A DNA stretch of 64,000 nt from Caldisericia bacterium (GTDB taxonomy: Bacteria; Caldisericota; Caldisericia; JAAYUI01). The notes below the pieces were generated by a model. The model had not been told where the DNA came from. It worked only from the letters and a program-made list of their open reading frames with translations, and did no database searches. The stretch is from the NCBI GenBank assembly GCA_017999835.1, contig JAGNLA010000002.1:99635-163634 (forward strand). Reading direction: 5' to 3'. Of the stretch, positions 756-44,836 are shown in pieces. The translations under genes were made by a program, and so were the position numbers. Positions within the stretch are counted from its first letter, which is position 1, and every line of letters starts with the position of its first letter.

Positions 756-1715
756 CTACAGCGCTTCTTGAATCGTTTCGTCGTTCCAGCCGCCGTAGCC
801 TGGGGATTCTGTCACTTTTCCGTCTGGAAGAACCAGCTTGTCTATCTTTCTCCTGTGGATGATTGTGAGCATCGAGCTTTCAAGTATTGCAGGTGTTATC
901 GTCCGAGACTCGAGTTTTGTGATCGGGTCGTGCTCGTACGGGGATGAATAGGTGACCAGCTCGTTGTAGATGTTTATAAGGATGCTTGCCTCACGCTCAA
1001 GACTGGGCGGGAGAGTGGTTACCGGAAGATTCAGCTCGTAAGCGCACTCGCGTCTGGTGAAAGGCATCATGCTGGAGTTGATGTTTCTGGTAAAGATGTT
1101 TGCTATGCGCTCAACTTCCTCTGGGGAAGTCTGGCGATTGGCAAGACCGATGCACTTTTTTGCAACATCTTTAGCCAGATGCCAACCCCTCATGGCGTTA
1201 CCAATTGCAAGCGGGTGAAGCTGGAACTGGTTGAGAATTTCATCTGGGGAGGAACCGATGGATTTGGCAAAATCGACATAGGTTGTCAGGTCATAAGGAT
1301 TAATCCAGACAGGATTTTCATCCGGGCCAACAGGCCCCATCGGGCTTGCGCTCTGAATGTGAACAGGGGCAAGCTCTGAAATTGGGGTCATGATAACTTC
1401 GTCGGCGCCAAGCGCAATAAATGATGACGCGCTGTGCATCCTGTACCCAACAATGACTGACAGGTAGTCGGTGTACTCGCGAAGCAGGCTCAGAATTCTC
1501 CACGCAGCCTCAGGCGACCCGCCTCGTGCCGAGATGAGCACGTCCAGCCTGGGCTGTTTGCCGATGACTGATAAGGTGTGATAAAGTGGCGGTATAACAT
1601 CATCAGCCACCGATGCGTTGTCAGGTGAAAGATAGTAGCAAACGAGCTTCGACTTGCGCTCAGTCTCAATGGCTTTTATAAGGTTTTTTCTCTGGGATCT
1701 GGTGTCATCCATCAT
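756..1715 (-). CDS. ClpP-class serine protease of the SDH (serine dehydrogenase proteinase) family.
   Basis: 319 aa. 'ISARGGSPEAAWRILSLL' and 'MHSASSFIALGADEVIMTP' resemble the ClpP/SppA crotonase-fold active-site region. The 3' end overlaps miaA, suggesting an operon. Confidence 0.6.
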   Translation of the reverse strand: MMDDTRSQRKNLIKAIETERKSKLVCYYLSPDNASVADDVIPPLYHTLSVIGKQPRLDVLISARGGSPEAAWRILSLLREYTDYLSVIVGYRMHSASSFIALGADEVIMTPISELAPVHIQSASPMGPVGPDENPVWINPYDLTTYVDFAKSIGSSPDEILNQFQLHPLAIGNAMRGWHLAKDVAKKCIGLANRQTSPEEVERIANIFTRNINSSMMPFTRRECAYELNLPVTTLPPSLEREASILINIYNELVTYSSPYEHDPITKLESRTITPAILESSMLTIIHRRKIDKLVLPDGKVTESPGYGGWNDETIQEAL

Positions 1716-2673
1716 AATCCTCCAATAGTTGCAAAATCATTTCTTTTTCGGCATTTTCAAAAACTGTGAAATCACTTCTCGAACGGATGAAGGTCATCTG
1801 ACGCTTTGCGTAGTGCCTGGTGTCCATTCTCATCGTTTCAAGGGCTTCCTCAAGCGTTACAACGCCATGTGCCCAGTCAAGCAACGCCGGGTAGCCGTGG
1901 GCTTTTATGCGCCTGACGTCGTCCTCAAGACCCTTTTCAACAAGCCCTTTGACCTCATCAAGCAGACCAGCCTCGACCATCTTGTCCACTCTGGCGTTGA
2001 TTCTGTCGTAGATTTCTTCTATCGGTCTGGTGATTGCAACAGGGATGAACGTGTACGGCAGAAAGACTTTTTCCTTGAACAGTTCGGTCCTGGTTTTTCC
2101 TGACACCAGATACATCTCCATGGCGCGGACTATGCGCTTGGTGTCGGTTGGTTTTATCTTGAGCGCTGATTCCTGGTCAATGGCAATCAGCTGGCTGTGG
2201 AGTTTTTGGGGGCCATTTTTTGATACAAAATCCTCGAGGTTTTTTCTGACAGCGTCGTCTTTTGGCGGTGCAGGGGAGAGGCCGTCGAGCAATGATGAAA
2301 GCCACATGTTTGTGCCACCGGCAACAATTGGCAGCTTTCCAAGCGAGAAGATGGTGTCGGCAACAGCGGCAAAGTCTTCGATATATCTGGCAACGTTGTA
2401 TTCCTCGGTGACACTGACATGACCGATGAGGTAGTGCTTGACCCCTTTCATCTCTTCCTTGGTGGGTCTTGCTGTGCCGATGAACAGTTCGTGATAAACC
2501 TGTTGGCTGTCGCAACTGATTATTTGGCTGCCCAGCTTCTTTGCCAACTTAATGGACAAATCGGTCTTGCCCGAGGCAGTGGGTCCGAAGATAACGAGGA
2601 TACATTTTTTTGCGACAAGTTCCTTGATGTCAGCCATCACAGAACATGCTACTACGATTTGGCATAACTTCAA
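1705..2673 (-). CDS. miaA: tRNA dimethylallyltransferase.
   Basis: P-loop 'GPTASGKT' at the N-terminus. 322 aa with MiaA-like conservation throughout ('GGTNMW', 'RQMTFIR'). Confidence 0.9.
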   Translation of the reverse strand: MKLCQIVVACSVMADIKELVAKKCILVIFGPTASGKTDLSIKLAKKLGSQIISCDSQQVYHELFIGTARPTKEEMKGVKHYLIGHVSVTEEYNVARYIEDFAAVADTIFSLGKLPIVAGGTNMWLSSLLDGLSPAPPKDDAVRKNLEDFVSKNGPQKLHSQLIAIDQESALKIKPTDTKRIVRAMEMYLVSGKTRTELFKEKVFLPYTFIPVAITRPIEEIYDRINARVDKMVEAGLLDEVKGLVEKGLEDDVRRIKAHGYPALLDWAHGVVTLEEALETMRMDTRHYAKRQMTFIRSRSDFTVFENAEKEMILQLLEDYDG

Positions 2674-2724
2674 TTATCAGTTGTTTGAGTTGACAGGAAG
2701 CTTTCAAAACCAGAAACTTGTGAC

Positions 2725-3786
2725 ATGAGAAAACTTGCTTTTTCCTTGGCAGCCATGGTGCTGCTGGTTTCGTCGTGCGGGAAACCCAAAACAGAGTCTG
2801 TTCACCAGAAACTTTTATCCATGTACCCACAGTACATCGTGACCAAGGCTTTCCAGACCAACAACAACCTGTTCATCTACAGCTTTGACGTAAAAGCCAT
2901 GAAGGAAAAGCAGCAGATAGCATCGGATTCTCCACAAAAATCCGGCCACGAACTTGCGTTGGTTACAGCTTGGGACTTCTCTAAAGACGGAGAATTCAAG
3001 TGCGAAAACCCATCGGCATTTGAAGGGTTCTCATCCTGCCTGTATTATGACATTCAGGTTTTCACACCTGTGCTCGACTATTCAGATTACATGAAGAAAA
3101 ACGGCGCCATCTCCGAACAGGCAGACAATGGCTTTGTCTATTCCATAAAAACAAAAGATGCCAAAGAAAAACCAGTCGTGACAAAATCTTCTGCAAACAA
3201 ACAGATAGTTGTCTGCACCAGATCATCAAAACAACCTTCCCAAAACGCAGCAACCATGATTGTTTCAGGCGAAGACAAACCAATAACCGAGTATGAATCA
3301 GTTCAGACCTGCCTTCGTGAGCTTGAAGGCTATCCTGCCATTATTATAGGTTTCCTCACTGAATCCTTTGCGGTCAAGTCTGACTACAAGGCAATTGTCA
3401 GCCCGGCAAAGTCACCCACGCAAATCATTGGCATGCAGGAAGTTTTTAAGCGCTGGGGCAGAAACGAATTTGTCTCCAACGCAGCTTTTGGCAGCAAGTG
3501 GGCAAACGGCGTAGAGACCGTAAAAGCTGTGCTTGTTTATCAAAACCAGGAAAAGGCTCAGGAGGATTTCGAAACGCTGTCAAAAGACATCACTCAGATC
3601 CCGTCATTTCTCACCGGTGACTCCTGGTACAAGCGGATGAACATGACAACGCCACAACTTGACATCAACGGTTCGGTTGTGACAGTTGAGTTTGACATGG
3701 ATGCAAAAACAGACAGCTTCCAATTTCCGCTGCTGATGAGAAACATAGAAAAAACCGGTGACTGGGGGTGGCTATGGCTAAAGTAA
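2725..3786 (+). CDS. Hypothetical lipoprotein.
   Basis: Signal peptide with lipobox 'VSSCG'. No recognisable domain. Confidence 0.5.
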   Translation: MRKLAFSLAAMVLLVSSCGKPKTESVHQKLLSMYPQYIVTKAFQTNNNLFIYSFDVKAMKEKQQIASDSPQKSGHELALVTAWDFSKDGEFKCENPSAFEGFSSCLYYDIQVFTPVLDYSDYMKKNGAISEQADNGFVYSIKTKDAKEKPVVTKSSANKQIVVCTRSSKQPSQNAATMIVSGEDKPITEYESVQTCLRELEGYPAIIIGFLTESFAVKSDYKAIVSPAKSPTQIIGMQEVFKRWGRNEFVSNAAFGSKWANGVETVKAVLVYQNQEKAQEDFETLSKDITQIPSFLTGDSWYKRMNMTTPQLDINGSVVTVEFDMDAKTDSFQFPLLMRNIEKTGDWGWLWLK

Positions 3787-4970
3787 GACTGGTTGCGCTT
3801 GCACTTATCGTTACCCTTGCTGGATGCGGAAAATCAGAACCTCTGCCAAGGACAGCTTTTCAGAAGGCTCTTGCCAGAATGCCTGCAATGATAATGGGTC
3901 TTACGACTCGACCGTTGAAGATGAAAGGTTTTGTGTTCAACAACATCGAATACACCAGAGATGTTCGAGGCTTGGTTCTTCAAGCCATCGACAAGGAAGA
4001 GTATAGGCTCCACTGGCTGCTTGGAATGGGAAACAACATCGACTCAAGCGTCAGCAAGGTTCTGCCGCTTGGCAAGTGGGATCACACCCAGATGATGAAC
4101 CCAACAACATGGAAGTGGAACATCTTCGATGTGTCAAACGACCACGAGGTTATATGCTCAACAGCCGACATGGACGAGTTCATCGACTGGATGAACAGGC
4201 ACAACTTCCAGATCATAAACAGACAGTATGCCACGGTTATGCAAAGCACAGGCAGGCACGTCGATTCTGACGTGTTTGGCTCAGGTGTGGTCATCGGCCC
4301 TGACGGCGCGGTGTTCATCGAACGCCAGATACCTTCAGACAACTCCCTTGAGCCGGCTTTCAGGCTCTACACCGGCGAAGGCGAGTCCCTGATGTCGATT
4401 CCGGAGATTTACGAAGTGACCTCTAAACTGCCTGAAAACGCCTTCACATCGATGGTTCTCAAGCTTGAGTCGTCCGTTTCAAAGCACAACCAGCTCTCCC
4501 AGGAATATTGGCACGGTATCCCGATCGGATCACCGCTTGACCCTGAACAGACCATTATTTATCAAGGTTTTGGCAGACCCAGCACTCTCACCTGGATAGG
4601 TGTTGCCCACACCACCAAAAACGGCAGGCACGGTCTGCAGTTTGAACTGCTCTACACCTCAGAGGACGAGGCAAAAAAAGACATAACAAAGCTGACAGAG
4701 GCAATTACGCAAGCCCAGGGGCGTTTCACAAAAAAAGCCTGGTGGACTCAGGACATGCGCCTGCTCGAACCAGAGATAAAGCAAGACGGCAAGTTCATCT
4801 CCATCTGGTCTGACTTTGACATGCCACCGCAAACACGTGAAAAAATCGAAAAAAACGACATGACCTACAAGGAAGCTGAAAGCCTCTGGATCGACGACGT
4901 GCCAGCGCTTGTCGACTTCCTCTACAAGCTCGAGAGGCACGACTACGGCCCATTCTGGCAGAAGGAATAA
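3768..4970 (+). CDS. Hypothetical lipoprotein. Its last 70 nt are duplicated at 44767..44836.
   Basis: Signal peptide with lipobox 'LAGCG'. Overlaps the upstream gene by 19 nt. Confidence 0.5.
   Translation: MAMAKVRLVALALIVTLAGCGKSEPLPRTAFQKALARMPAMIMGLTTRPLKMKGFVFNNIEYTRDVRGLVLQAIDKEEYRLHWLLGMGNNIDSSVSKVLPLGKWDHTQMMNPTTWKWNIFDVSNDHEVICSTADMDEFIDWMNRHNFQIINRQYATVMQSTGRHVDSDVFGSGVVIGPDGAVFIERQIPSDNSLEPAFRLYTGEGESLMSIPEIYEVTSKLPENAFTSMVLKLESSVSKHNQLSQEYWHGIPIGSPLDPEQTIIYQGFGRPSTLTWIGVAHTTKNGRHGLQFELLYTSEDEAKKDITKLTEAITQAQGRFTKKAWWTQDMRLLEPEIKQDGKFISIWSDFDMPPQTREKIEKNDMTYKEAESLWIDDVPALVDFLYKLERHDYGPFWQKE
4891..4960 (+). repeat. Copy 1 of a 70-nt direct repeat (the 3' end of CDS 3768..4970). Copy 2 is at 44767..44836.
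   Basis: 68/70 identity with sharp boundaries. Both differences are synonymous in the copy-1 reading frame. Confidence 0.9.
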
Positions 4971-5268: not shown

Positions 5269-6150
5269 TCAAACAAAGGTTGTCAGCATGGAGCAACAGG
5301 TTGGGTGCTCTTCAACCTCAAAACCATGAGCTTTGGCATAGTCCCACGCCTGCTCCGAGGGCACGGCAAGCCCGTCCACACCAGCCTCGATGGCCAATAC
5401 GTCTGTCTTTTGCTTATGAGTGCCGACAGGTCTTGCGCAGCCAAGGTTGACAAACGTATTTGGCATGAGTTTTTTGGCAAGCCTGATAATCTCGGCGATA
5501 CGCTCAGGTGTCGGAGGGGTGACAGACCCCATCTTGGTGTGCTTTGAGGGGCGAAGCGCGATGACGACCATTGCCTTGGGGTTGTACTTTGAAAGCATCT
5601 CCAGAGCTTGCTCTTCGCCTGAGTGTCCGCCATAATCAAGACCGACAAGCACATGCGGGACAACCATCAAACCGGCCGAAAACACCGCATCAAGCGAATT
5701 TTTTACGATGTCTAAATTTATGTGGTATATCTTTTTTGCGACATCGTCAGAGCCGATGATGTCGATGAGAGCCTGGTCAACGCCAGCATCTTTAAGCATC
5801 TTTGCCTGGTTGTGGGTAGCAAATCCGGTGTGAACCGAAAGGTGTAGGTTTGTCTGAGATTTTATCTTTGCCAGTGTCGGAGCAAACTCTTCCCAGGGCA
5901 GTTTTCCCTGGAAATTCGAACCGCCAGAAACCAACAAACCGACATCGCCACGAGCCTGACCCGCAAGAGCGTAGTCCAAAAGCTTGTCAGGGGTTGAACA
6001 GTCTGGCATGGTCACCAAAAGGTGTGCCTGGCAGTGGTCGCACATCAGGTCGCATTTTGAGCCCGTGATTGACACGGCAGGATAGCGTCCGGTCTCGCCG
6101 TAGAGCGTGAACATGCCTGGCAAAAAGAAGTGAAGCTTTCTCATTTGCAA
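5269..6150 (-). CDS. Radical SAM domain protein.
   Basis: CxxxCxxC cluster motif 'CDLMCDHC' near the N-terminus, 293 aa. Subfamily not determinable by eye. Confidence 0.7.
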   Translation of the reverse strand: MQMRKLHFFLPGMFTLYGETGRYPAVSITGSKCDLMCDHCQAHLLVTMPDCSTPDKLLDYALAGQARGDVGLLVSGGSNFQGKLPWEEFAPTLAKIKSQTNLHLSVHTGFATHNQAKMLKDAGVDQALIDIIGSDDVAKKIYHINLDIVKNSLDAVFSAGLMVVPHVLVGLDYGGHSGEEQALEMLSKYNPKAMVVIALRPSKHTKMGSVTPPTPERIAEIIRLAKKLMPNTFVNLGCARPVGTHKQKTDVLAIEAGVDGLAVPSEQAWDYAKAHGFEVEEHPTCCSMLTTFV

Positions 6151-6409
6151 ATGATGATAATTAAAAAAACTGTGATGACCATAAATTTCTGATTATCTGA
6201 CAAATCTGAGATTGGTTTTTGGGACATATCTATGAGACATACTTATTCTGTTTTGAAATAGTAGGAATTTTTTGAAGCGGGAGCAGGTATTATTTCAATT
6301 AATTAGAAATCATTCATAATTAATTAAATCGTATGGCTTTGCCATTGATTTCCATATTTTATGTGTTCAAGGGGGATTAGTGTTTTATCGGCGGAGCCGT
6401 ATTGATTGG

Positions 6410-6481
6410 AGCGGGCGACGGGATTTGAACCCGCGACCATTAGCTTGGAAGGCTAATGCTCTACCACTGAGCTACACCCGC
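6410..6481 (-). tRNA. tRNA-Gly (anticodon UCC).
   Basis: Reverse complement GCGGGTGTAGCTCAGTGGTAGAGCATTAGCCTTCCAAGCTAATGGTCGCGGGTTCAAATCCCGTCGCCCGCT. Anticodon loop CTTCCAA, T-loop TTCAAAT. Confidence 0.85.
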
Positions 6482-6533
6482 TCGAAGCAATTTACTGAAA
6501 TAGAAATTACCAGAGATTGCTCATCTGTCAAGG

Positions 6534-6932
6534 TCAAGCTGGCTTTGACAGCTTTTTGATTCTGGCGTCAGCAAGCCACGGGGCAAGAAAAGCCAGAAGA
6601 TAGCCGACGGCAAGCCAGGGTTCACCTTTAAAGACATAGAAATCCATTGCTTTGAAACGGACAACTACGACATAGATGGCAAAATCGAACAAGACCAGCA
6701 TAAAAAGCCAGAAAATGGCAAGACGTCTGCCTTCGTTTGTTCTTGGTTGAGTGCGATTAAGATAAAACTTTGTCAGGAAATAGAAAAGAACAGGTATCAA
6801 TACCATTCTTGACGCCCACATCACGCTCTGGTACTGGACAAGAATCCACAGCATGAAGGCGATTACGGTTGACACAAGATATCCAAGCAAAAAATATTCA
6901 ATGGCTCTAAGCCAGCTGAGTTTGAACTTCAT
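6534..6932 (-). CDS. Hypothetical integral membrane protein with about 4 TM helices.
   Basis: Hydrophobic segments. Lies downstream of the sugar dehydrogenase on the same strand. Confidence 0.4.
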   Translation of the reverse strand: MKFKLSWLRAIEYFLLGYLVSTVIAFMLWILVQYQSVMWASRMVLIPVLFYFLTKFYLNRTQPRTNEGRRLAIFWLFMLVLFDFAIYVVVVRFKAMDFYVFKGEPWLAVGYLLAFLAPWLADARIKKLSKPA

Positions 6933-6971
6933 CTATAGAATCCTGCCATCTTAGTCCTGATTTGTCAAGCC

Positions 6972-8297
6972 TTATAATGCTTTGTAATCAAGTCCCGTGT
7001 CCATGATGGCTTTTCTGTCGAAGGCGAACCTGCAATCAAGAACCAGTCCTGGTTTTTTCATGTCTGCAAAGAGTTTTGGATCTGAATTGCCTTTTTCAGG
7101 CATCGGCGGCTGCTTGGCTCCGATAATGACAATATCGCAATCTTTTACCAGTTCATCAAGAGCTTTGGCAACATGCTTTGGTTGGACAGAGACCTGACTC
7201 ATGTCAACAACCGGATCGTATGTCCAAACATCCAAACCAGCCTTCATAAGATTTTCAAGCACGTCCACAGCTGGACTCCACCTGGCATCGGTTGAATAAT
7301 CCTTCATGGCAAGTCCAATGAGTCCAACCTTTGGATTTGCTATGCCTTTTTCTTTTGCCCAGTCGGTGACAATTTTTGCAATGTGCGCCGGCTGGTCAAC
7401 GTTGGCTTTTCTGGCTGTCGAAATGACCGGAATGCTGACTCCAAGCTTGTCAGAGGTCGGCTTGAGGTAGTACATTGCCTGTGGAAGGCAGTGTCCACCG
7501 ACTCCAGGCCCAGGCTGATGAAGGAACCCCACACGCTTGTGTGTGCGGATGAGGTCAAGAACCTCTTTGGTGTCCAGATTCATTGCAGTGCAGAAGTTTG
7601 CATATTCGTTTGCAAGGGCGATGTTGACGTCCCTGGCTATATTTTCAAAAACCTTTGCCGCTTCGACCGCCTCTGGGCAGGAAGCCTCACGAACGTCTTT
7701 GATTCCAATATCTGTCAAAAACTCCACAGCCCTTTTTGTGGCTTTTGGGGTCAGGCCAGCAACGGGAGTCACCATACCAATGAGTTCCTCGAAAGCTACA
7801 TTTTCAGCCATTCTTTCCGAGCTGAAGGCAAGGTCGAAGTCTTCAGTTGCCGACATGCCTGTGGGTTTTTCAAGTGTTGGAGCAACATAAGATCTTGTGT
7901 AGCCAACAATCAGCGTCGATCTGGCAACAACAAGGGCACCTTTTCTGAGGTGCTTTGAGAGTGTGTTCAAAGCGCTCTCAAGGTCAGAGGTGTCGGCTTT
8001 GTTGTCTTTAAGCGGTATGCCAACGGTCATGATTATTTTTTGTCCGTCATAGTCGAGGGCTTTGGCTGGATCGGTTGTGATGTGGTATCTGCCTGAGGCA
8101 ACTGCACGCTTGAGCACTGACTCAATTGGCTCCCCTTTGAACGCCTCAGCCATGACAACGCAGCCGTTGTTGAGCTGGTCAACATAAGATTGTCTGACGT
8201 CAAGACCAAACACCTCATAGCCAGAATCCCACATGATAAGTGAAAGAGGGAGTCCAACGTAGCCAAGTCCTATTATCGTAGCTTTTTTTTCTGCCAT
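6972..8297 (-). CDS. Nucleotide-sugar dehydrogenase (UDP-glucose / UDP-ManNAc dehydrogenase family).
   Basis: N-terminal Rossmann motif 'IGLGYVGLPLS', catalytic Cys region 'GGHCLPQ', 441 aa. Start set at the ATG at 8297 (MAEKKATIIG), preceded by GGAAGGTG, rather than the longer ORF start at 8348. Confidence 0.85.
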   Translation of the reverse strand: MAEKKATIIGLGYVGLPLSLIMWDSGYEVFGLDVRQSYVDQLNNGCVVMAEAFKGEPIESVLKRAVASGRYHITTDPAKALDYDGQKIIMTVGIPLKDNKADTSDLESALNTLSKHLRKGALVVARSTLIVGYTRSYVAPTLEKPTGMSATEDFDLAFSSERMAENVAFEELIGMVTPVAGLTPKATKRAVEFLTDIGIKDVREASCPEAVEAAKVFENIARDVNIALANEYANFCTAMNLDTKEVLDLIRTHKRVGFLHQPGPGVGGHCLPQAMYYLKPTSDKLGVSIPVISTARKANVDQPAHIAKIVTDWAKEKGIANPKVGLIGLAMKDYSTDARWSPAVDVLENLMKAGLDVWTYDPVVDMSQVSVQPKHVAKALDELVKDCDIVIIGAKQPPMPEKGNSDPKLFADMKKPGLVLDCRFAFDRKAIMDTGLDYKAL

Positions 8298-8457
8298 AGT
8301 GCGCACCTTCCGATCGAGGATCGAATCGGCATTTTTATACCGACGCAAGCAATTCTACAATTTGAGACTCAAAAGGCAATGTCAAAGTTAACCTATAAAA
8401 GGTTAAAGCCCGCACTTGACTGTCATGGCCAAAATGTAATAATTCAATGGTACGCAT

Positions 8458-8540
8458 GGGCAGTTAGCGAAGTGGCCAAACGCGGTAGACTGTAAATCTA
8501 TTGACTGATGTCTTCGGAGGTTCGAATCCTTCACTGCCCA
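8458..8540 (+). tRNA. tRNA-Tyr (anticodon GUA), type II with a long variable arm.
   Basis: GGGCAGTTAGCGAAGTGGCCAAACGCGGTAGACTGTAAATCTATTGACTGATGTCTTCGGAGGTTCGAATCCTTCACTGCCCA. Anticodon loop CTGTAAA, T-loop TTCGAAT, variable arm hairpin GAC-TGAT-GTC. Confidence 0.85.
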
Positions 8541-8910
8541 GTTATCACCCCAACTTCGTTGGGGAACCCCATCAGAAGAAATCCATTAATATTTGTAAAT
8601 ATTGATTTTTCGAAGTAAATTTCTACAAAACTTTCAACCTGATTTTTGGAAATGGACATCATCCCAAACAATATTAACAGCAACTTTGAAAACAGCAAAA
8701 TCACAACAATAACAATCAGCACCGCCGAGTAGCGAAAAACTTCATAGTCTTCTCTCCTTCTGTAAAGCTTTGATTGACCCATAAACGTCACGAAAGCTCA
8801 GACACTGTTAATCATTTTAGTTTTTCTTGGATCAAGATTTATAGTTTTTGAACATCCATTTGACTAACAGTGGATTGAGAACTTGTGTATGTCGGTTATA
8901 TAATAGGTTC

Positions 8911-9300
8911 ATGAAAGGCATGCTTCACCACGTTGAGATATATGTAAGAGACCTTGCAATCAGCCTTGATTTTTGGGGTTGGCTGCTTGGGGAGCTTGGT
9001 TATAAGTCATTCCAGAAATGGGATGGTGGCGAGAGCTTCATCCTCGGTGATACCTATATCGTGTTTGTTCAAGCCGAGGAAAGGTTTTGCGACATTCCGT
9101 ACCATCGCTGCAGACCAGGTCTCAACCATTTGGCATTTCATGCAGGCAGCAGGGAGTTTGTCGATGAGATCACCAAAAAACTCAAAGACCGCGGTGTGAC
9201 AATTCTTTATGAGGATCGCCATCCTTTTGCCGGCGGGGAAGATTGTTATGGCGTTTACTTTGAAGACCCGGACAGGATGAAGGTGGAGATAACGGAATGA
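8911..9300 (+). CDS. VOC-family protein (glyoxalase / bleomycin-resistance / dioxygenase fold).
   Basis: 'MKGMLHHVEIYVRDLAISLDFW' is a typical VOC N-terminus. Start moved to the ATG at 8911; the track ORF begins at a TTG at 8848. Confidence 0.7.
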   Translation: MKGMLHHVEIYVRDLAISLDFWGWLLGELGYKSFQKWDGGESFILGDTYIVFVQAEERFCDIPYHRCRPGLNHLAFHAGSREFVDEITKKLKDRGVTILYEDRHPFAGGEDCYGVYFEDPDRMKVEITE

Positions 9301-9321
9301 TAAGGCTTTGCCGATATTAAG

Positions 9322-9339
9322 TACCGCTAACGCGGAAAC
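9322..9339. repeat. Left arm of an 18-nt inverted repeat (taccgctaacgcggaaac). Its partner is at 9666..9683.
   Basis: 17/18 complementarity to 9666..9683. Each arm also contains a ccgc-N4-gcgg mini-hairpin. Confidence 0.6.
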
Positions 9340-9470
9340 CCATTAAACAAAAAATGTCTTCCCTGAATAACTTTTTTTCAATCCGCAAAGTAAATTTGAT
9401 AATGCCTTTTACAAATTGTGATAATATGAAAAACATAACAATTGAACCAAAGAAATTGACTAATTAGAAA

Positions 9471-9551
9471 CCATCTTCTCCCTCTGGGAGAAGGATTTCA
9501 GCCACTCAGCCACAATGAAATCGTGTGGCTTTGCCACCGATTTCTAGAAAA
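9471..9551 (+). repeat. Copy A of an ~80-nt structured intergenic repeat.
   Basis: Aligns with 9733..9814. Hairpin 1 is cttctccc-tct-gggagaag (9475..9493). Hairpin 2 is gccaca-N9-tgtggc (9509..9529). Confidence 0.7.
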
Positions 9552-9665
9552 CTTATTTTCAAAGAATTGTTTTACCGGCGCAGTCGCGATAAAACGAAAC
9601 CGTCTGGTTCATCCAGCGGTTTCAATAAAATCTCGTTGAGGACAACTAGTTTTATTTTAAAAAAA

Positions 9666-9683
9666 TGTTTCCGCGTCAGCGGT
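9666..9683. repeat. Right arm of the 18-nt inverted repeat.
   Basis: gtttccgcgtcagcggta is the reverse complement of 9322..9339 with one mismatch. Confidence 0.6.
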
Positions 9684-9732
9684 AGCAATTATCGGCGGAG
9701 CCGTTATAAACTCCCTCATCCGGTACTTCGTA

Positions 9733-9814
9733 CCACCTTCTCCCAGAGGGAGAAGGATACCAGTTACTCAGCCACAACGAAATCGTGTGGCTTTGCCACC
9801 GATTTCTATAAAAA
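9733..9814 (+). repeat. Copy B of the ~80-nt structured intergenic repeat.
   Basis: The stems match copy A. The hairpin-1 loop differs (agag vs tct) while pairing is kept. Confidence 0.7.
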
Positions 9815-9825
9815 TACCGGAATAG

Positions 9826-9857
9826 CAAATTATTGTTAGACCAAACCGAAGGTTTGG
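9826..9857 (-). terminator. Candidate terminator for CDS 9861..11054.
   Basis: Hairpin ccaaacc-gaa-ggtttgg at 9841..9857, followed on the minus strand by a moderately T-rich stretch. Confidence 0.4.
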
Positions 9858-9860
9858 AGG

Positions 9861-11054
9861 TTACACCATAAACATATCCGCAACCATCAGCGAAAGTGAA
9901 TCGGTCAGACCAGCAGCAAGCGCAAGCGCCTGGATGGAAAACATGGTGCACCAGCAGTTGGGGTCGTACCTTTCAGGTCTTTCCCTGCCTGAGTGCATGA
10001 TTGCGCCGTAGCTTTTCGGATCCGGTTCGTCGGATGAGAGCGACACGAGTCTGGCAACAGCCCGATCCAGTGCGTCACCGTAGTTGTCCGGCAACATTCC
10101 GAGCTTGTTGAGCACATAACCTGTGCGGATGAACTGGGCACAGATGTCGGAGCGTTCAAAGTTTTCGCCTGAACCGACAAGCATTGGGAATCCGCCGTTT
10201 GGAAGCTGGTTTTCAGCGACAAACTTCCAGGTTTTAAGCGCAGACTGAATCATATGCTCTCGCTCAAGGTTGACGCCACCGACAAGCAAAGCCTCGATGG
10301 CATAACATGTCGGGTGGAGGTGGAACGCACCGTCACCGTGTGAGGCTGCGCCTTCGACATGTTCCTGAGCCCAGGAATGAACCCATTCCAGCATCTGGCT
10401 GGCATAGTCCCTGACACGGTCGCTCATGGTGGTGTCGGCGTAGTTTAAAAGGCCGATGGCGCACTTGCCAAGGTATGGCTGGATGTCTGTACTCCAGTGT
10501 TTTGCATCGCAAACAAATTCGTTTGTGTCCAGGTCAAATATCGGATATGGCATGCCGTTGCTGGAGCGCATCCTGTCGACTATGAACTCGACGGCGCCTG
10601 CAGCAACCGATAGATAATAGCTGTTTCCAGTTTCCTGATAGAGGTTGACCATGCCGTTGAGGATCATGCCTGTGTCAAAAGTGTAGATTTGCCTGAGGAC
10701 TTTGTTTTGTGTCGGGTAGAATTTTGCAATAAAACCGCCCTGATCCGGAACCCATGCCTGGTCAACAAGCCATGAAGCTGCGTAATCGGCATAGACATCC
10801 CTGGACATGAATGGCAGGATTCTGTCTAAAAATAAAAGTGTCGTGATGGCGTAGCCTGTAATCTCTGAATAAAGATAGGAATACGACCTGTCTGTCGAAG
10901 AATAGTAGGCGTAAAAACCGCCTGCATGCTCGGTTTCTGTCTCCTGAATGCCTGAACCGGTCAACCATGCGCTAGCCCGGAGCAATGCCTTGAGAGCATC
11001 CGGGTTTGTTCGCATTGAGGCTGACACGTCGGTGATTGACCGACGCAAACTCAT
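9861..11054 (-). CDS. Cytoplasmic alpha/alpha-toroid repeat protein (prenyltransferase / terpenoid-cyclase-like or six-hairpin glycosidase-like).
   Basis: Repeated 'Q..GGF' motifs ('DQGGFIAKF', 'QLPNGGFP'). No signal peptide. Overlaps the upstream gene by ATGA. Confidence 0.45.
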   Translation of the reverse strand: MSLRRSITDVSASMRTNPDALKALLRASAWLTGSGIQETETEHAGGFYAYYSSTDRSYSYLYSEITGYAITTLLFLDRILPFMSRDVYADYAASWLVDQAWVPDQGGFIAKFYPTQNKVLRQIYTFDTGMILNGMVNLYQETGNSYYLSVAAGAVEFIVDRMRSSNGMPYPIFDLDTNEFVCDAKHWSTDIQPYLGKCAIGLLNYADTTMSDRVRDYASQMLEWVHSWAQEHVEGAASHGDGAFHLHPTCYAIEALLVGGVNLEREHMIQSALKTWKFVAENQLPNGGFPMLVGSGENFERSDICAQFIRTGYVLNKLGMLPDNYGDALDRAVARLVSLSSDEPDPKSYGAIMHSGRERPERYDPNCWCTMFSIQALALAAGLTDSLSLMVADMFMV

Positions 11055-42195: not shown

Positions 42196-44733
42196 TTGAA
42201 CAAGATTGTTATGCTTGTGTGCGCCTTGCTGGCCATTCCAGCATTTGGCATTCATAATTCGTCATCAGAGGACTTGCCCAAACCCTGGCCGCAGTTTGCC
42301 TGTGACATTGCGCACTCGTCTGTGGCTTCGGACAAATGGGACTACAAAACGTACAAAACACCGGCATGGATACTGACAATGAAAGGCACAGACGGATTTT
42401 CTCGAAATCCAGTCATTGACAAAGGCTTGATGGTTATCGCCGATTCACAGCGGATTTATTGCATGGACGTGATCTCCGGTAAACAGAAATGGTCATCGGA
42501 CTTGGTCAACGGATGTGGCGGATCCTGCGCAATAATAGGCGATCGCGTGCTTGTTCCGACGTCAGGGAACATTCTTTCAATCGATTTGGCCACCGGCAAC
42601 GTTCAGGCTTCCCTGAGCATCGGATCAGCAACATCGCCAAGTTTTTATACAGATGACTACAGCAATACAGGCTTCTACTTCGGAGTCCCTGGGAAACCAG
42701 GCTACGCTGCCAAATACGACATAGATTCAGGCAGGAAAAGATGGGAGATGCAGACTGAATGGGGTTGCCCGGGTGCAATCGCCGTCAACACTGAGGAAGG
42801 CATCGCCGGTGTAACATCCCACTACAGTATCTATGCTCTCGATGAGATGTACGGCTCAATGGAAAGCCAGATTGAGACAGGAACCCAGTCTTTTGCAGCA
42901 ACGTCAGCCATCGACAGGTTCTGCGTCTACACCATGTCAGGCGGTGAAACATATTTGCTGCCAAAACTTTACGAAAAGTGGAACCCGATGATCATCGACT
43001 GTGGAGGATTCACCTTCTGGCCACCTGCCCAGTTTGGCAAAACACTCATCCAGGGCAATCAGGATGGCAGGCTGGTCAACTTCGATTTAACAGGCAAGGT
43101 CATCTGGGATGTCCAAATGCCAGGGCCGGTGACAAACGGTTCAACGGTCATGGACGGAACCGTGCTTGTGCCTGTCGGTGGCTCGGACAAAACAAAGTCA
43201 GGTGTCTACATCATGGATGCCAAAACCGGCTCGCAGATAGATTTCATCAACATTCAAGCCGAGTATGTCTTCCAGCCAGTCGTTGCCTGGCAGAGGATGT
43301 TTGTCGAGTATGGAAAGAACGAAAAATATACCAGCCGCTGGCTTGCCTGTTACGGCAAAAAACCAAGACCAGCCGACCAGGAACCAAAGCTGACAATCAA
43401 AGATTTTGTCATCACGACACAAGTGGCGTGGATGGGCGAAACACTCAAACAGGCAACACTGACAAACTCAGGCAAGGTCAAGCTCGACCTGCTGCTGACC
43501 GGCGACACGCTCATCACTCCAACCGTTGAAACAATGACGCTTGCGCCAGGTGCATCGGAAACACTGAGGATAAAAATTGTCGGCAAAAACAAACCCGGCA
43601 AATACACGCAAAAGATAAACTGCCACATCACCGATCCCGATTATGGCGACCAGTCGCTTGGCTACATAACGGCAATCATCACCATCACTGAGGCTGCTCC
43701 ACCTGAACCGCAGGATCAGCCGCCAAACCCGCCAAGAGAGCTGCAGGCAAGGGTGGTTTACGACTACATTCAACTGGAGTGGAAGCAACCTGACAAAGGA
43801 ACAGAACCTCTTGGGTACAACGTTTTCAGAACCGTCGGCACCGATGCGTTTCCAAAAGACCCGATAAACAAGTCCAAAATCACCGACCTGACATACGCCG
43901 ACAAGGAGGTCATTGCCGGGCTGCAATACACCTACAAAGTCGTTGCCCTTGGCAAGGCTGGATTGGTGTCCGACCCATCAAACACCGCAACAGCCGAAAT
44001 CCCAATAAAGCTGCTGGCTGTCAAGAACCTGAAAGCAGAAAAACAAGGCGAGGGCGTGCTTTTGACCTGGGAATCCGAGCAGCCTGTGACTTTTGTAATC
44101 GAGCGCAACGGCGACCAGGTAGGCATGACCTCAAATCTTCTGTTTTCTGACACAAACCCTCCCCAGGAAAAACTTATCTACAAGGTGTTTCCGAAGAAAG
44201 ACAACCAGTTTGGCCCTGAAGCTTTTGTCATCATTGACCTTTCTCCCCAAAAGCCACCTGACCCAGACCCAAATCCGGAACCCGAGCCTGAACCGCAACC
44301 AGAGCCGACGCCTGAAGAAAAAGAAGTCAAAATCGTTGTCGAGTTCACGGTTGGCAAGGAGATCGCCACAGTCAACGGAACGGCCAAGTTTTCAGGCGCA
44401 ATCCCGTTTATCAGTAACGGCAGGATGATGGTTCCATTCAGGTTTTTGGGTGAATCCATCGGCGCAAAGGTCAGCTACACATCAGACCCAAAAACCGGCA
44501 AAGTGTTGACTGTTACTTATGAGCTTGCCGGCAAAACCGTCCAGCTGGTCATGGGCTCAAAGACTGCAATTGTTGGCGAAGACAGCGTTGAGCTTGACGC
44601 CCCTCCACAGATTTCAGGTGGCAAAACCTATGTTCCTCTCAGGTTTGTCACGGCAGCGCTGGGTGGGACCGTGGACTGGAACGCTACAGAAAAGAAAGCA
44701 ACGATAACATATATCTCGAAGGTGAAGCCGTAG
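42196..44733 (+). CDS. Secreted PQQ-like beta-propeller / Fn3 protein with a Pro/Glu/Asp-rich linker and a C-terminal CAO-N domain.
   Basis: TTG start with RBS AAGGAGG. Linker 'PDPDPNPEPEPEPQPEPTPEE'. C-terminal 'NGRMMVPFRFLGESIGAKVSY...GGKTYVPLRFVTAALGGTVDW'. Confidence 0.55.
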   Translation: MNKIVMLVCALLAIPAFGIHNSSSEDLPKPWPQFACDIAHSSVASDKWDYKTYKTPAWILTMKGTDGFSRNPVIDKGLMVIADSQRIYCMDVISGKQKWSSDLVNGCGGSCAIIGDRVLVPTSGNILSIDLATGNVQASLSIGSATSPSFYTDDYSNTGFYFGVPGKPGYAAKYDIDSGRKRWEMQTEWGCPGAIAVNTEEGIAGVTSHYSIYALDEMYGSMESQIETGTQSFAATSAIDRFCVYTMSGGETYLLPKLYEKWNPMIIDCGGFTFWPPAQFGKTLIQGNQDGRLVNFDLTGKVIWDVQMPGPVTNGSTVMDGTVLVPVGGSDKTKSGVYIMDAKTGSQIDFINIQAEYVFQPVVAWQRMFVEYGKNEKYTSRWLACYGKKPRPADQEPKLTIKDFVITTQVAWMGETLKQATLTNSGKVKLDLLLTGDTLITPTVETMTLAPGASETLRIKIVGKNKPGKYTQKINCHITDPDYGDQSLGYITAIITITEAAPPEPQDQPPNPPRELQARVVYDYIQLEWKQPDKGTEPLGYNVFRTVGTDAFPKDPINKSKITDLTYADKEVIAGLQYTYKVVALGKAGLVSDPSNTATAEIPIKLLAVKNLKAEKQGEGVLLTWESEQPVTFVIERNGDQVGMTSNLLFSDTNPPQEKLIYKVFPKKDNQFGPEAFVIIDLSPQKPPDPDPNPEPEPEPQPEPTPEEKEVKIVVEFTVGKEIATVNGTAKFSGAIPFISNGRMMVPFRFLGESIGAKVSYTSDPKTGKVLTVTYELAGKTVQLVMGSKTAIVGEDSVELDAPPQISGGKTYVPLRFVTAALGGTVDWNATEKKATITYISKVKP

Positions 44734-44766
44734 AAGAACTGAAAAATTCTTCCTCTCGACGACGTG

Positions 44767-44836
44767 CCGGCGCTTGTGGACTTCCTCTACAAGCTCGAGA
44801 GGCACGACTACGGCCCATTCTGGCAAAAAAATATTC
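44767..44836 (+). repeat. Copy 2 of the 70-nt direct repeat, a non-coding fragment identical to the 3' end of CDS 3768..4970.
   Basis: 68/70 identity to 4891..4960. No start codon in frame. Sits between the stop of the propeller gene and the 3' end of the SIR2-like gene. Confidence 0.9.

Follow-up and report, generated by a model that had tools for sequence, protein, structure and literature searches.

The 560-bp gap at positions 9301-9860 of the window (the whole stretch of 64,000 nucleotides that was analyzed) is a convergent spacer between a VOC gene (+ strand, stop at 9300) and an alpha/alpha-toroid gene (- strand, stop at 9861), and is best read as the Caldisericales counterpart of the REP/BIME intergenic repeats. 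We assign a probability of roughly 0.65 to the reading that the gap is not a gene but a mosaic in which short interspersed palindromic modules of the REP/BIME kind (or of the BOX type) are clustered. The gap contains an inverted and decayed partial unit (9304 to ~9406), a truncated unit (element A), and a full unit that extends from copy C to element B. Its hairpin and repeat modules recur with their structure kept, are found at other loci and in other genomes, differ in number and orientation, lie at the 3' ends of genes, and fall where strain identity and synteny break off. REP-like dispersed repeats were among the candidates named in a preliminary description of this DNA, and further copies were indeed found in the window (6303-6362), in related genomes and, depending on the module type, in other phyla. 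The same description regarded the long ORF at 9525-9839 as probably non-coding, which agrees with the lack of a Pfam match for this ORF and for the antisense ORF at 9676-9951, neither of which is preserved in relatives. The following features were recognized (bit scores refer to R1, the model of the 28-nt hairpin that was used to scan the window):

6303-6400, + strand: second locus in the window, R1 38.5 bits, E = 3e-6 (whole window, filters off).
9304-9339, - strand: left arm, inverted partial unit with GGC-TTT-GCC and CCGC-TAAC-GCGG (9324-9335), then AAAC; directly after the VOC stop.
9379-9406, - strand: candidate decayed 28-nt hairpin of the inverted unit, uncertain; 17/28 positions agree with an antisense family member, GTAAAT loop included.
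9396-9425, + strand: promoter-like site TTGATA-18-TGtGATAAT, 10/12 match plus TG; not conserved.
9470-9551, + strand: element A, truncated to the 3' part of the unit; R1 70.5 bits for its 28-nt hairpin.
9596-9623, + strand: copy C of the 28-nt hairpin, GAAACCG-T-CTGG-TTCAT-CCAG-CGGTTTC; R1 50.4 bits.
9667-9703, + strand: right arm, mini-hairpin CCGC-GTCA-GCGG (9671-9682) and HP-b CGGC-GGA-GCCG (9693-9703).
9708-9757, + strand: cross-phylum module, AAACTCCCTCATCC (9708-9721), HP-c (9722-9734), and hairpin 1 of B (9736-9756).
9732-9813, + strand: element B, hairpin 1, linker with TTACTCAG, and 28-nt hairpin (9779-9806); R1 61 bits.
9841-9857, no strand assigned: hairpin CCAAACC-GAA-GGTTTGG, separated by 3 nt from the toroid stop; hairpins of this type are also present in the related loci L062 and L064.

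Read on the + strand of the window, the repeat unit has a length of ~150-185 nt and begins with a 28-nt hairpin that consists of the foot GAAAYCG/CGRTTTC, a bulged T, a covarying 4-bp top, and a YTTNY loop, flanked by (A)CCACTCR-N6-AAT on the 5' side and an A-rich tail on the 3' side. One or two mini-hairpins, the conserved unpaired AAACTCCCTCATCC, the small covarying hairpin HP-c (GGTAC-TTC-GTACC), and hairpin 1 (CCTTCTCCC-loop-GGGAGAAGG) follow in this order. Copy C is the first hairpin of a 183-nt unit ending with element B, in which AAACTCCCTCATCC is single-stranded and hairpin 1 reads CCTTCTCCC-AGA-GGGAGAAGG. In element A, hairpin 1 (9475-9493, loop TCT) is joined to the 28-nt hairpin (9517-9544) through a 22-nt linker that includes GCCACTCAG (9501-9509); the CCCTCATCC and HP-c parts 5' of hairpin 1 are missing. 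The 80-nt double hairpin singled out in the preliminary description corresponds to a junction of two units, comprising hairpin 1, the 22-nt linker, and the next 28-nt hairpin. The alignment of A and B over ~80 nt reported there was reproduced (82 nt each, 88% identical, gap-free; BLAST E = 6e-23 within the window), and the 28-mer common to both elements occurs only at 9517-9544 and 9779-9806 and is present in 0/100 shuffles.

Hairpin 1 exists in both copies as had been described. Its stem pairs 9475-9482 with 9486-9493 in A (8 bp, to which a U.G pair is added) and 9736-9744 with 9748-9756 in B (9 bp), but the loops given as tct and agag are TCT and AGA. These loops are exact reverse complements of each other and the 20-nt hairpins of A and B are mutually 100% complementary. 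The difference between A and B thus resembles a single flip of the hairpin more than three separate point changes. The second hairpin originally proposed, gccaca-N9-tgtggc, is literally present (9509-9529 in A), but is neither the favored nor the conserved fold. The stable fold conserved in A and B is the 28-nt hairpin GAAATCG-T-GTGG-CTTTG-CCAC-CGATTTC, whose 3' arm is the 'tttgccaccgatttcta' tail that had been placed behind the second hairpin. Minimum free energy folding of A and B, on either strand, yields GAAATCG(T)GTGGC-TTT-GCCACCGATTTC with 12 bp and one bulged base (z ~ -4.5 to -4.8), and this is the only one of the two alternative folds kept by the relatives. The argument that stems preserved despite differing loops imply a structure was thus right in spirit, but had been applied to a wrongly chosen second hairpin.

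In an alignment of 17 copies from 6 loci, the family hairpin has 11 bp and one bulged base, and 99.5% of the cells pair. Compensatory changes on both sides occur in 6/11 pairs, a result matched by 0/500 shuffles. Every copy has a length of 28 nt, a fixed 7-bp foot (with the variant GAATTCA/TGAATTC in L075), one bulged T, and a fully covarying upper stem. The second locus in the window contains a degenerate copy at 6325-6352 (TAAATCG-T-ATGG-CTTTG-CCAT-TGATTTC), followed by a spacer and TTATCGGCGGAGCCGT (6385-6400), and abuts the 3' end of a tRNA-Gly gene (6407-6481, - strand); beyond the two loci, the R1 scan of the 64-kb window gave no match better than E = 2. The candidate at 9379-9406, which R1 did not detect, was called by eye from a comparison with the L064 copies and lies 43 nt from the left arm, the spacing expected for a unit.

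In related genomes, arrays of the family lie in both orientations downstream of orthologous genes, and all Caldisericales copies are located in spacers. One of these loci, L064, has eight hairpins (six direct, two inverted), 139-nt tandem units, four other recurrent hairpin types, a hairpin identical to copy C (at 4614), and 3' of the toroid stop a module of two mini-hairpins like that of the left arm. In L062 two units are spaced 183 nt apart, as from C to B in the window; a speE locus carries units in two Caldisericales MAGs (L013, L038), and one MAG has units at two loci (L013, L062). The host of the window is itself a Caldisericales genome with a G + C content of 45%, in which an ArsR-type HTH gene is located two genes from the gap. 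Searches with the 28-nt hairpin gave no exact 28-mer match in the JGI metagenomes, where seven matches to the degenerate family pattern were all chance-like and without hairpin geometry. The 20-mer hairpin core was absent from viral contigs, and a search of phage records was negative as well. String searches of the literature with the hairpin and module sequences retrieved nothing or unrelated primers, and a search for Caldisericota repeats retrieved nothing.

Conservation of the whole unit, including the 14-nt unpaired C/U-rich stretch, between species whose toroid proteins are only 86% identical counts against a mere mosaic of repeats and would also fit a functional RNA. The units could be tandem paralogues of a ~150-185-nt structured small RNA on the + strand, with four or five hairpins and an unpaired C/U-rich seed (AAACUCCCUCAUCC) pairing with purine-rich, Shine-Dalgarno-like targets. 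We consider this unlikely, even though covariation affects all helices, the unpaired stretch is invariant across species, the promoter-like site at 9396-9425 is a good one, and hairpin 1 is followed by a canonical terminator in L038 and L013. The excess of G.U over A.C wobbles on the + strand (5 vs 1-2), which was counted partly by eye, is suggestive but not significant. However, the number of promoter-like sites in the gap is at chance (4 vs 2.5 +/- 1.6 expected), as it is in related loci, and the site at 9396-9425 is probably fortuitous; promoters and terminators do not recur with the units. Units in both orientations within one spacer (L064), truncated and inverted fragments, and the proteobacterial relatives of hairpin 1, which have no strand bias relative to transcription and often form inverted doublets, speak against such an RNA as well, and a search of the window for seed targets gave only 3-mismatch matches, none at a clear ribosome-binding site. 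Tandem small RNA paralogues are known from Listeria, where every copy of LhrC1-4 comes with its own promoter and terminator and all copies point the same way; the gap resembles this system in its tandem structured units with C/U-rich motifs in one spacer, but its units are without their own promoter or terminator and differ in orientation. The tandemly duplicated sRNA that had been listed as a first candidate is disfavored on the same grounds.

With respect to intrinsic termination, neither hairpin 1 nor the 28-nt hairpin of A or B is followed by a proper T run on either strand, and a terminator scan of both elements gave weak partial matches only (hairpin 1 of A on the minus strand, and 5 bp at the top of the hairpin of B). 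A run of T5-6 is present at related CCCTCTCC-loop-GGAGAGGG modules of L003, L064, and L038/L013. The right arm, since it is followed by T7 (9665-9655) when read on the - strand, is predicted to be a weak terminator-like end for the toroid transcript. The Rfam comparison proposed earlier returned no family for the region: at the gathering score the whole window contained only three tRNAs, and at E <= 10 the gap region had nothing better than E = 2, with all hits far below the gathering score. Nothing relevant was obtained either when 15 loci containing the hairpin core, eight proteobacterial loci, and a single betaproteobacterial spacer were scanned.

A link between the repeats and genome rearrangement comes from strain L003, which is 98.4% identical to the window up to position 9665 and unalignable from there leftwards; it possesses the right arm, but neither the interior nor the left arm, and keeps the 43-nt spacing to a different family hairpin. 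In every genome compared, a different gene is found beyond the cluster on the toroid side, and several short-read contigs end inside or beside B, or <=80 nt from the toroid stop. Hairpin-recognizing site-specific recombination (cf. attC, Xer/pdif), with the hairpins as sites and the neighboring genes swapped as cassettes, would account for the switch of gene content exactly at the clusters in every comparison. The 28-nt length fits an 11-6-11 division whose outer dyad is conserved, the bulged base is reminiscent of the extrahelical bases in attC sites, and the VOC gene is small and accessory-like. We nevertheless regard this explanation as distinctly improbable, as the observed break at 9665 lies outside any 28-nt hairpin, no recombinase gene was found nearby, the variable genes have no matching flanking sites, and duplex-binding recombinases do not require a palindromic, covarying hairpin center. 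Two further sources of mobility were considered and rejected. An integration island at a tRNA gene was explored by searching 8300-9900 for a repeat of the 3' end of the tRNA, and none was found; the tRNA-Tyr gene ends at 8541, and two contigs start at 8511. An IS200/IS605 or TnpB origin was examined in the neighboring proteins 2725-3786 and 3768-4970, which have no Pfam match and carry lipoprotein-type N-termini.

The 18-nt inverted repeat noted in the preliminary description was recovered at 17/18 positions, with a CCGC-N4-GCGG mini-hairpin in each arm, and extends to 36 nt (9304-9339 and 9667-9702; 81% complementary, 327 nt apart). These arms led to the suggestion that they bound a miniature element of ~360 bp, which would make 9304-9702 a MITE. 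This is very improbable: L003 has one arm only, the arms are internal pieces of the unit in opposite orientation, the module occurs in both orientations in L064, the flanks have no target-site duplication, and a second copy of the 399-bp segment was not found anywhere searched. Correia and ERIC MITEs are small, non-coding, repeated, and hairpin-forming, but the gap has no terminal inverted repeats that define a transposed unit, and no target duplications. It is likewise highly unlikely that the 28-nt dyads serve as operators through which a dimeric regulator controls the flanking genes. Conservation of the outer half-sites GAAAYCG...CGRTTTC and the nearby ArsR-type gene would fit this, but the inner stems covary to keep pairing, which is not needed for duplex recognition, and the sites lie at convergent gene 3' ends, not at promoters, and also beside the unrelated speE, tRNA-Gly, and ackA genes; the paired operator sites initially considered leave the compensatory changes inside the hairpins unexplained. 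Short peptides (MKS.DLL.DF..., 10-33 aa) encoded by the hairpins are scarcely credible: an ATG (AATGAAAYCG) is found in 12/17 copies and the products of L038 and L062 are similar (25-26 aa, ending in AEP), but compensatory stem changes rewrite the product (SDLLG, CGFAT, SGSSS), B and C have no ATG, the lengths vary without any Shine-Dalgarno sequence, substitutions are not biased to synonymous sites, and ORF 9525-9839 has no Pfam match.

Compared with known repeat families, the gap shares its modular, strongly folded, intergenic build with the BOX elements of Streptococcus pneumoniae, which have a variable number of sub-elements in the fixed order A-Bn-C and no clear function; there is no sequence relation. 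A 28-nt palindromic repeat with a conserved foot also resembles a Cas6-type hairpin, but unlike in CRISPR arrays, where identical repeats are evenly spaced by unique spacers, the spacing is irregular (79 and 183; 98-255 in L064), orientations are mixed, and tops are variable, and Tandem Repeats Finder reported no array. REP and BIME sequences are known in E. coli, Pseudomonas, Xanthomonas, and Stenotrophomonas, where they are associated with RAYT transposases (PMC2817692, PMC3116915, PMC3337134). Like these, the 28-nt hairpin is an imperfect palindrome within the range of 20-35 nt with an interrupting bulge, and the copies are extragenic, located at gene 3' ends or inside operons, clustered in mixed orientations with other small motifs, divided into several stem subclasses per genome, strain-variable in copy number, and linked to rearrangements. 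The gap as a whole, with an inverted partial unit, three direct hairpins, and mini-hairpins, resembles a BIME with irregular alternation. RAYT-associated REPs carry a conserved GT(A/G)G head on the 5' side of their palindrome (PMC2817692, Table 1); in front of the 28-nt hairpins the sequence is instead AAT/AAC, and in front of hairpin 1 it is ACCA/GTACCA. Further differences are that the length is strictly 28 nt and the foot fixed while the top is free, that the hairpins are placed within a longer 150-185-nt unit with conserved unpaired motifs, that no rayt gene was seen at the loci, and that the copy number observed so far is low: two loci in the 64 kb of the window and two or more in a related MAG, compared with tens to hundreds of REPs per genome. 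REPINs are inverted REP doublets (PMC3116915, PMC3337134), an arrangement seen only in the proteobacterial relatives of hairpin 1, as A and B carry their hairpin-1 modules in direct orientation, without an inverted partner. Rhizobial intergenic repeats (RIMEs, Sm-repeats, and AB/C palindromes) have been described as dozens of conserved structured sequences without an assigned function (PMC2573895). The hairpin-1 module is abundant in spacers of Rhizobium, Shinella, and Neorhizobium, but here the host belongs to the Caldisericales and the module is fused to a lineage-specific 28-nt hairpin.

Intergenic repeats that are abundant in Rhizobiaceae and Xanthomonas match the module of CCCTCATCC, small covarying hairpin, and CACCTTCTCCC-loop-GGGAGAAGG. 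A spacer of Xanthomonas sacchari, which adjoins a GTAG-headed hairpin, agrees with the module at 9708-9757 in 41/45 nt (E = 1e-7); 111 plasmid or chromid records and >120 IMG/VR stretches match the hairpin-1 module, and it occurs at 21 places in one 4.6-Mb Shinella replicon. The proteobacterial relatives are found on both strands without bias (19 vs 18), in 24 convergent vs 7 divergent spacers, and often as inverted copies 55-100 nt apart that are able to form one long hairpin. Separately, a multicopy hairpin in Burkholderiales spacers has exactly the sequence of the top of the 28-nt hairpin; the ORFs beside these hairpins were only housekeeping genes, and no variant tops were found beside the second Burkholderiales hairpin. 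It is possible, albeit doubtful, that the module of CCCUCAUCC, covarying hairpin, and CACCUUCUCCC-loop-GGGAGAAGG, and separately the UCG-U-GUGG-CUUUG-CCAC-CGA hairpin, are structured non-coding elements conserved across phyla, from Caldisericota to Alpha-, Beta-, and Gammaproteobacteria and Actinobacteria, and absent from Rfam. Their invariant letters would be held by a shared trans-acting factor, candidates for which are a hairpin-specific nuclease or transposase or an RNA-binding protein, or would reflect inter-phylum transfer of a repeat-plus-enzyme system.

For the repeat cluster itself, we infer a spread by local tandem duplication (periods 262, 183, and 139 nt) plus recombination, or through a hairpin-specific enzyme. 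The hairpins would fold in single-stranded DNA, in the 3' untranslated RNA of the two convergent genes, or in both, and there they may act at most as orientation-independent transcript-end or stability elements, and the fixed foot, the bulge, and the invariant unpaired motifs may be kept through recognition by a protein. Some observations weigh against the mosaic reading: only two loci were seen in 64 kb, so that the copy number looks low, and neither an empty site nor a target duplication indicating mobility was found. No transposase of any kind was detected, a scan for RAYT-like proteins (HUH...Y..NP motif; heuristic only) of the window and all fetched loci was negative, and there was no rayt gene among the Pfam-annotated genes listed around the locus.

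For annotation, the gap and its long predicted ORF should be labeled as repeat DNA, and neither as a gene nor as an sRNA. As the repeats break short-read assemblies and mark differences in gene order, they offer a practical way to mark genome plasticity in these MAGs. The clean covariation of the 28-nt hairpin, with foot and bulge fixed and the top free, makes it a good handle for a recognizing protein in a poorly studied phylum. Its near-identity, and that of the hairpin-1 module, to modules of Proteobacteria was unexpected and, if not a coincidence, bears on the origin of REP-like elements and on their movement between phyla. If the cross-phylum conservation is real, the Caldisericales unit would be a chimera of two such recognition modules, which would contradict the usual view of REP-type repeats as lineage-specific signatures.

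The 560-bp region is best read as a BIME/REP-like mosaic made up of repeated hairpin modules and lies between two converging genes, a glyoxalase/VOC gene ending at 9300 (+ strand) and an alpha/alpha-toroid gene ending at 9861 (- strand). The closest relatives of the window that have named records are uncultured Caldisericales MAGs.

Repeat features of the window
6303-6400: second locus of the repeat family; a degenerate 28-nt hairpin (6303-6362), then the start of the next module, TTATCGGCGGAGCCGT
6407-6481, - strand: tRNA-Gly, whose 3' end adjoins this second locus
9470-9551: element A, first 82-nt direct repeat; hairpin 1 at 9475-9494
9596-9623: C, a diverged copy of the 28-nt hairpin between A and B
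9732-9813: element B, second 82-nt direct repeat; hairpin 1 at 9736-9755

The preliminary description had recognized two repeat elements, and A and B indeed share 88% ungapped identity; the 28-mer common to both has no other site in the 64 kb and was absent from every shuffle. The stems of hairpin 1 are as described there, but the loops read TCT in A and AGA in B (previously given as tct and agag). These loops are exact reverse complements between identical stems, the two hairpins being 100% mutually complementary, as would be expected if template switching had inverted one hairpin. A single inversion at the DNA level would explain the difference more simply than three substitutions. The letters of the proposed hairpin 2 (gccaca-N9-tgtggc) are present, but compete with the much stronger GAAATCG(T)GTGGC-TTT-GCCACCGATTTC, which is the minimum-free-energy fold in both elements on either strand (z about -4.5). 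The inverted repeat, first put at 18 nt, extends to 36 nt at 81%.

Alignment of five units from three genomes gave the following order of modules.

Order of modules in the repeat unit
1: 28-nt hairpin
2: spacer
3: mini-hairpin CCGC-N4-GCGG (optional)
4: hairpin HP-b, CGGCGGAGCCG
5: unpaired stretch AAACTCCCTCATCC
6: small hairpin HP-c
7: hairpin 1

In the window, one unit spans C through B, with a hairpin-to-hairpin spacing of 183 nt that equals the spacing in L062, a locus of another genome. Element A is a truncated copy (hairpin 1, linker, and next hairpin), and a partial unit, oppositely oriented, makes up the inverted repeat's left arm. Locus L064 carries 139-nt tandem units on the same plan (hairpin, 22-nt linker with CCACTCG, 28-nt hairpin), whose first stem has an entirely different sequence from that of the window.

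Further copies of the 28-nt hairpin were collected from the regions 3' of toroid orthologues (protein identity 97 to 59%) and from two hairpin-sharing Caldisericales loci: eight in L064 (two inverted), two each in L062 and L038, and one to two each in L013, L003, and L075. Every copy is exactly 28 nt long and consists of a foot of 7 bp (GAAAYCG/CGRTTTC), a single bulged base (mostly T), an upper stem of 4 bp that is free in sequence, and the 5-nt loop YTTNY, flanked by (A)CCACTCR-N6-AAT upstream and an A-rich tail downstream. Across 17 aligned copies 99.5% of cells are paired, and 6 of the 11 pairs show changes on both sides (27 cells); neither shuffles nor slid registers of this alignment came near the observed pairing and covariation. 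A covariance model built from the copies recovers A, B, and C, and finds the degenerate copy at the second locus with 38.5 bits (E = 3e-6). With this fourth copy, the family proves to be dispersed but thinly spread. Of the candidates in the preliminary description, the REP-like one is supported, with further copies at a second site of the window and in spacers of related genomes.

The near-identical strain L003 matches the window at 98.4% identity from the toroid operon to 9665 and is unrelated beyond it, with a different neighboring gene, yet another family hairpin follows at an equal distance of 43 nt; this pattern would fit paralogous units having been exchanged. On one side of their cluster, L013 and L038 also differ, and the gene beyond the toroid-side cluster differs in each toroid-bearing genome that could be traced past it (window, L003, L062, L064). 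Several short-read contigs terminate in or beside B, or no more than 80 nt from the toroid stop codon. In L062, from a related MAG, a block of an SDH-type protease, IPT, and two lipoprotein-like genes (5748-9194; window 756-4970) is inverted relative to the window and sits directly past the toroid-side cluster, and the window segment with tRNA, radical-SAM, UDP-glucose dehydrogenase, and VOC genes is missing there. Two independent short-read contigs start at window 8511 within tRNA-Tyr (8457-8541; contigs L005, L060, L061), about one k-mer short of the 3' end of the tRNA; this hints that strains vary there or that a repeat boundary coincides with the tRNA end. A 73-nt direct repeat of 96% identity (4891-4963 and 44756-44828) forms the 3' end of a 400-aa lipoprotein-like ORF (3768-4970) and recurs in the spacer past ORF 42196-44733; since the two proteins are unrelated, it looks like duplication of a gene-end fragment.

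The hairpin-1 module also occurs in Proteobacteria. The sufC-sufB spacer of Xanthomonas sacchari holds a match to 45 nt of B (9713-9757; 41/45, E = 1e-7) that adjoins a GTAG-headed hairpin, and the module has matches in 111 plasmid or chromid records, chiefly of Rhizobium and Shinella, lying in unannotated spacer at all eight inspected loci. Comparison of eight proteobacterial with five Caldisericales copies shows CCCTCATCCG and CCACCTTCTCCC to be unchanged or almost so, and there is covariation in HP-c (91% paired, 4/5 pairs). An exact-pattern scan of IMG/VR yielded at least 120 stretches, with 60-73% G+C in 80 sampled ones and inverted doublets in many of those listed. In a rough orientation analysis of the matches listed, single copies between co-directional genes had no preferred strand (19 opposite, 18 same), and convergent spacers outnumbered divergent ones (24 vs 7), which is classic REP behavior (PMC3337134, PMC2817692). 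High-G+C Proteobacteria carry the form CCCTCATCC, hairpin, CACCTTCTCCC-loop-GGGAGAAGG in great abundance, and many of its occurrences are inverted doublets (L076 1415-1545; L077 1505-1625; L079; IMG/VR L084-L203); Rfam has no family for the proteobacterial module, and doublets score weakly against microRNA precursor models. The canonical intrinsic terminators of four Caldisericales loci are of one recurrent type, (CCTCACCC-AA-)CCCTCTCC-loop-GGAGAGGG-T5-6 (L003 2666-2700; L064 3981-4020; L038 7247-7279; L013 2909-2929), resembling the proteobacterial repeats CCCTCACCC...CCCTCTCCC/GGGAGAGGG; such a terminator interrupts the passage from hairpin 1 to the 28-nt hairpin in both L038 and L013.

In the reference-genome collection, 52 stretches contain the 20-nt top of the 28-nt hairpin, against an expectation of a few by chance, including the Burkholderiaceae mreB/mreC spacer, a multicopy two-hairpin element of Casimicrobiaceae, and tandem arrays of Acidimicrobiales. 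Lower stems covary in all three groups; the weight of this second cross-phylum coincidence is uncertain. The conserved Burkholderiales spacer element (L007-L058; e.g., L010 896-990, L016 117-200) comprises AAAATCG-T-GTGGCTTTGCCAC-CGATTTT, identical to the window's hairpin over 20-26 nt, and a second hairpin GCGCAAAAGTAGGTTTGCACTTTTGCGC. Its sites are the mreB-mreC spacer and the neighborhoods of rho, infB, iscS, and argG; it is multicopy in Casimicrobiaceae MAGs and matches no Rfam family. Acidimicrobiales and Microthrixaceae MAGs carry the top in tandem units with 78-nt and 109-nt periods (L046 1180-1300; L021 3380-3520), and the Acidimicrobiales unit recurs in an Acidobacteria MAG (L039).

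The active form of the modules may be single-stranded DNA or RNA. DNA, or hairpins that work in either orientation, is favored by the mixed orientations and the absence of a strand bias; an RNA role is kept alive by the excess of G.U over A.C pairs (5:2 on the + strand) and by the conserved unpaired stretch. The repeats are not shown to belong to the RAYT-type REP family: those of the window lack the GTAG head, and no rayt gene was found at the examined loci. No transposase was seen among the genes around the locus or in a motif scan of the loci. Comparison with L003 speaks against the two arms of the inverted repeat being the ends of a MITE. Short ATG-initiated frames were rejected as peptides, being rewritten by the compensatory changes, and Pfam found no domain in the ORFs of the gap. 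A CRISPR array was rejected for the hairpin repeats, Rfam has no family matching the region, phage records gave no matches, and promoter-like sites were at chance level with none recurring with the units. For the BIME/REP-like mosaic, the fixed foot, the bulge, the invariant unpaired motifs, and the freely varying stems point to recognition of the modules by a putative protein.
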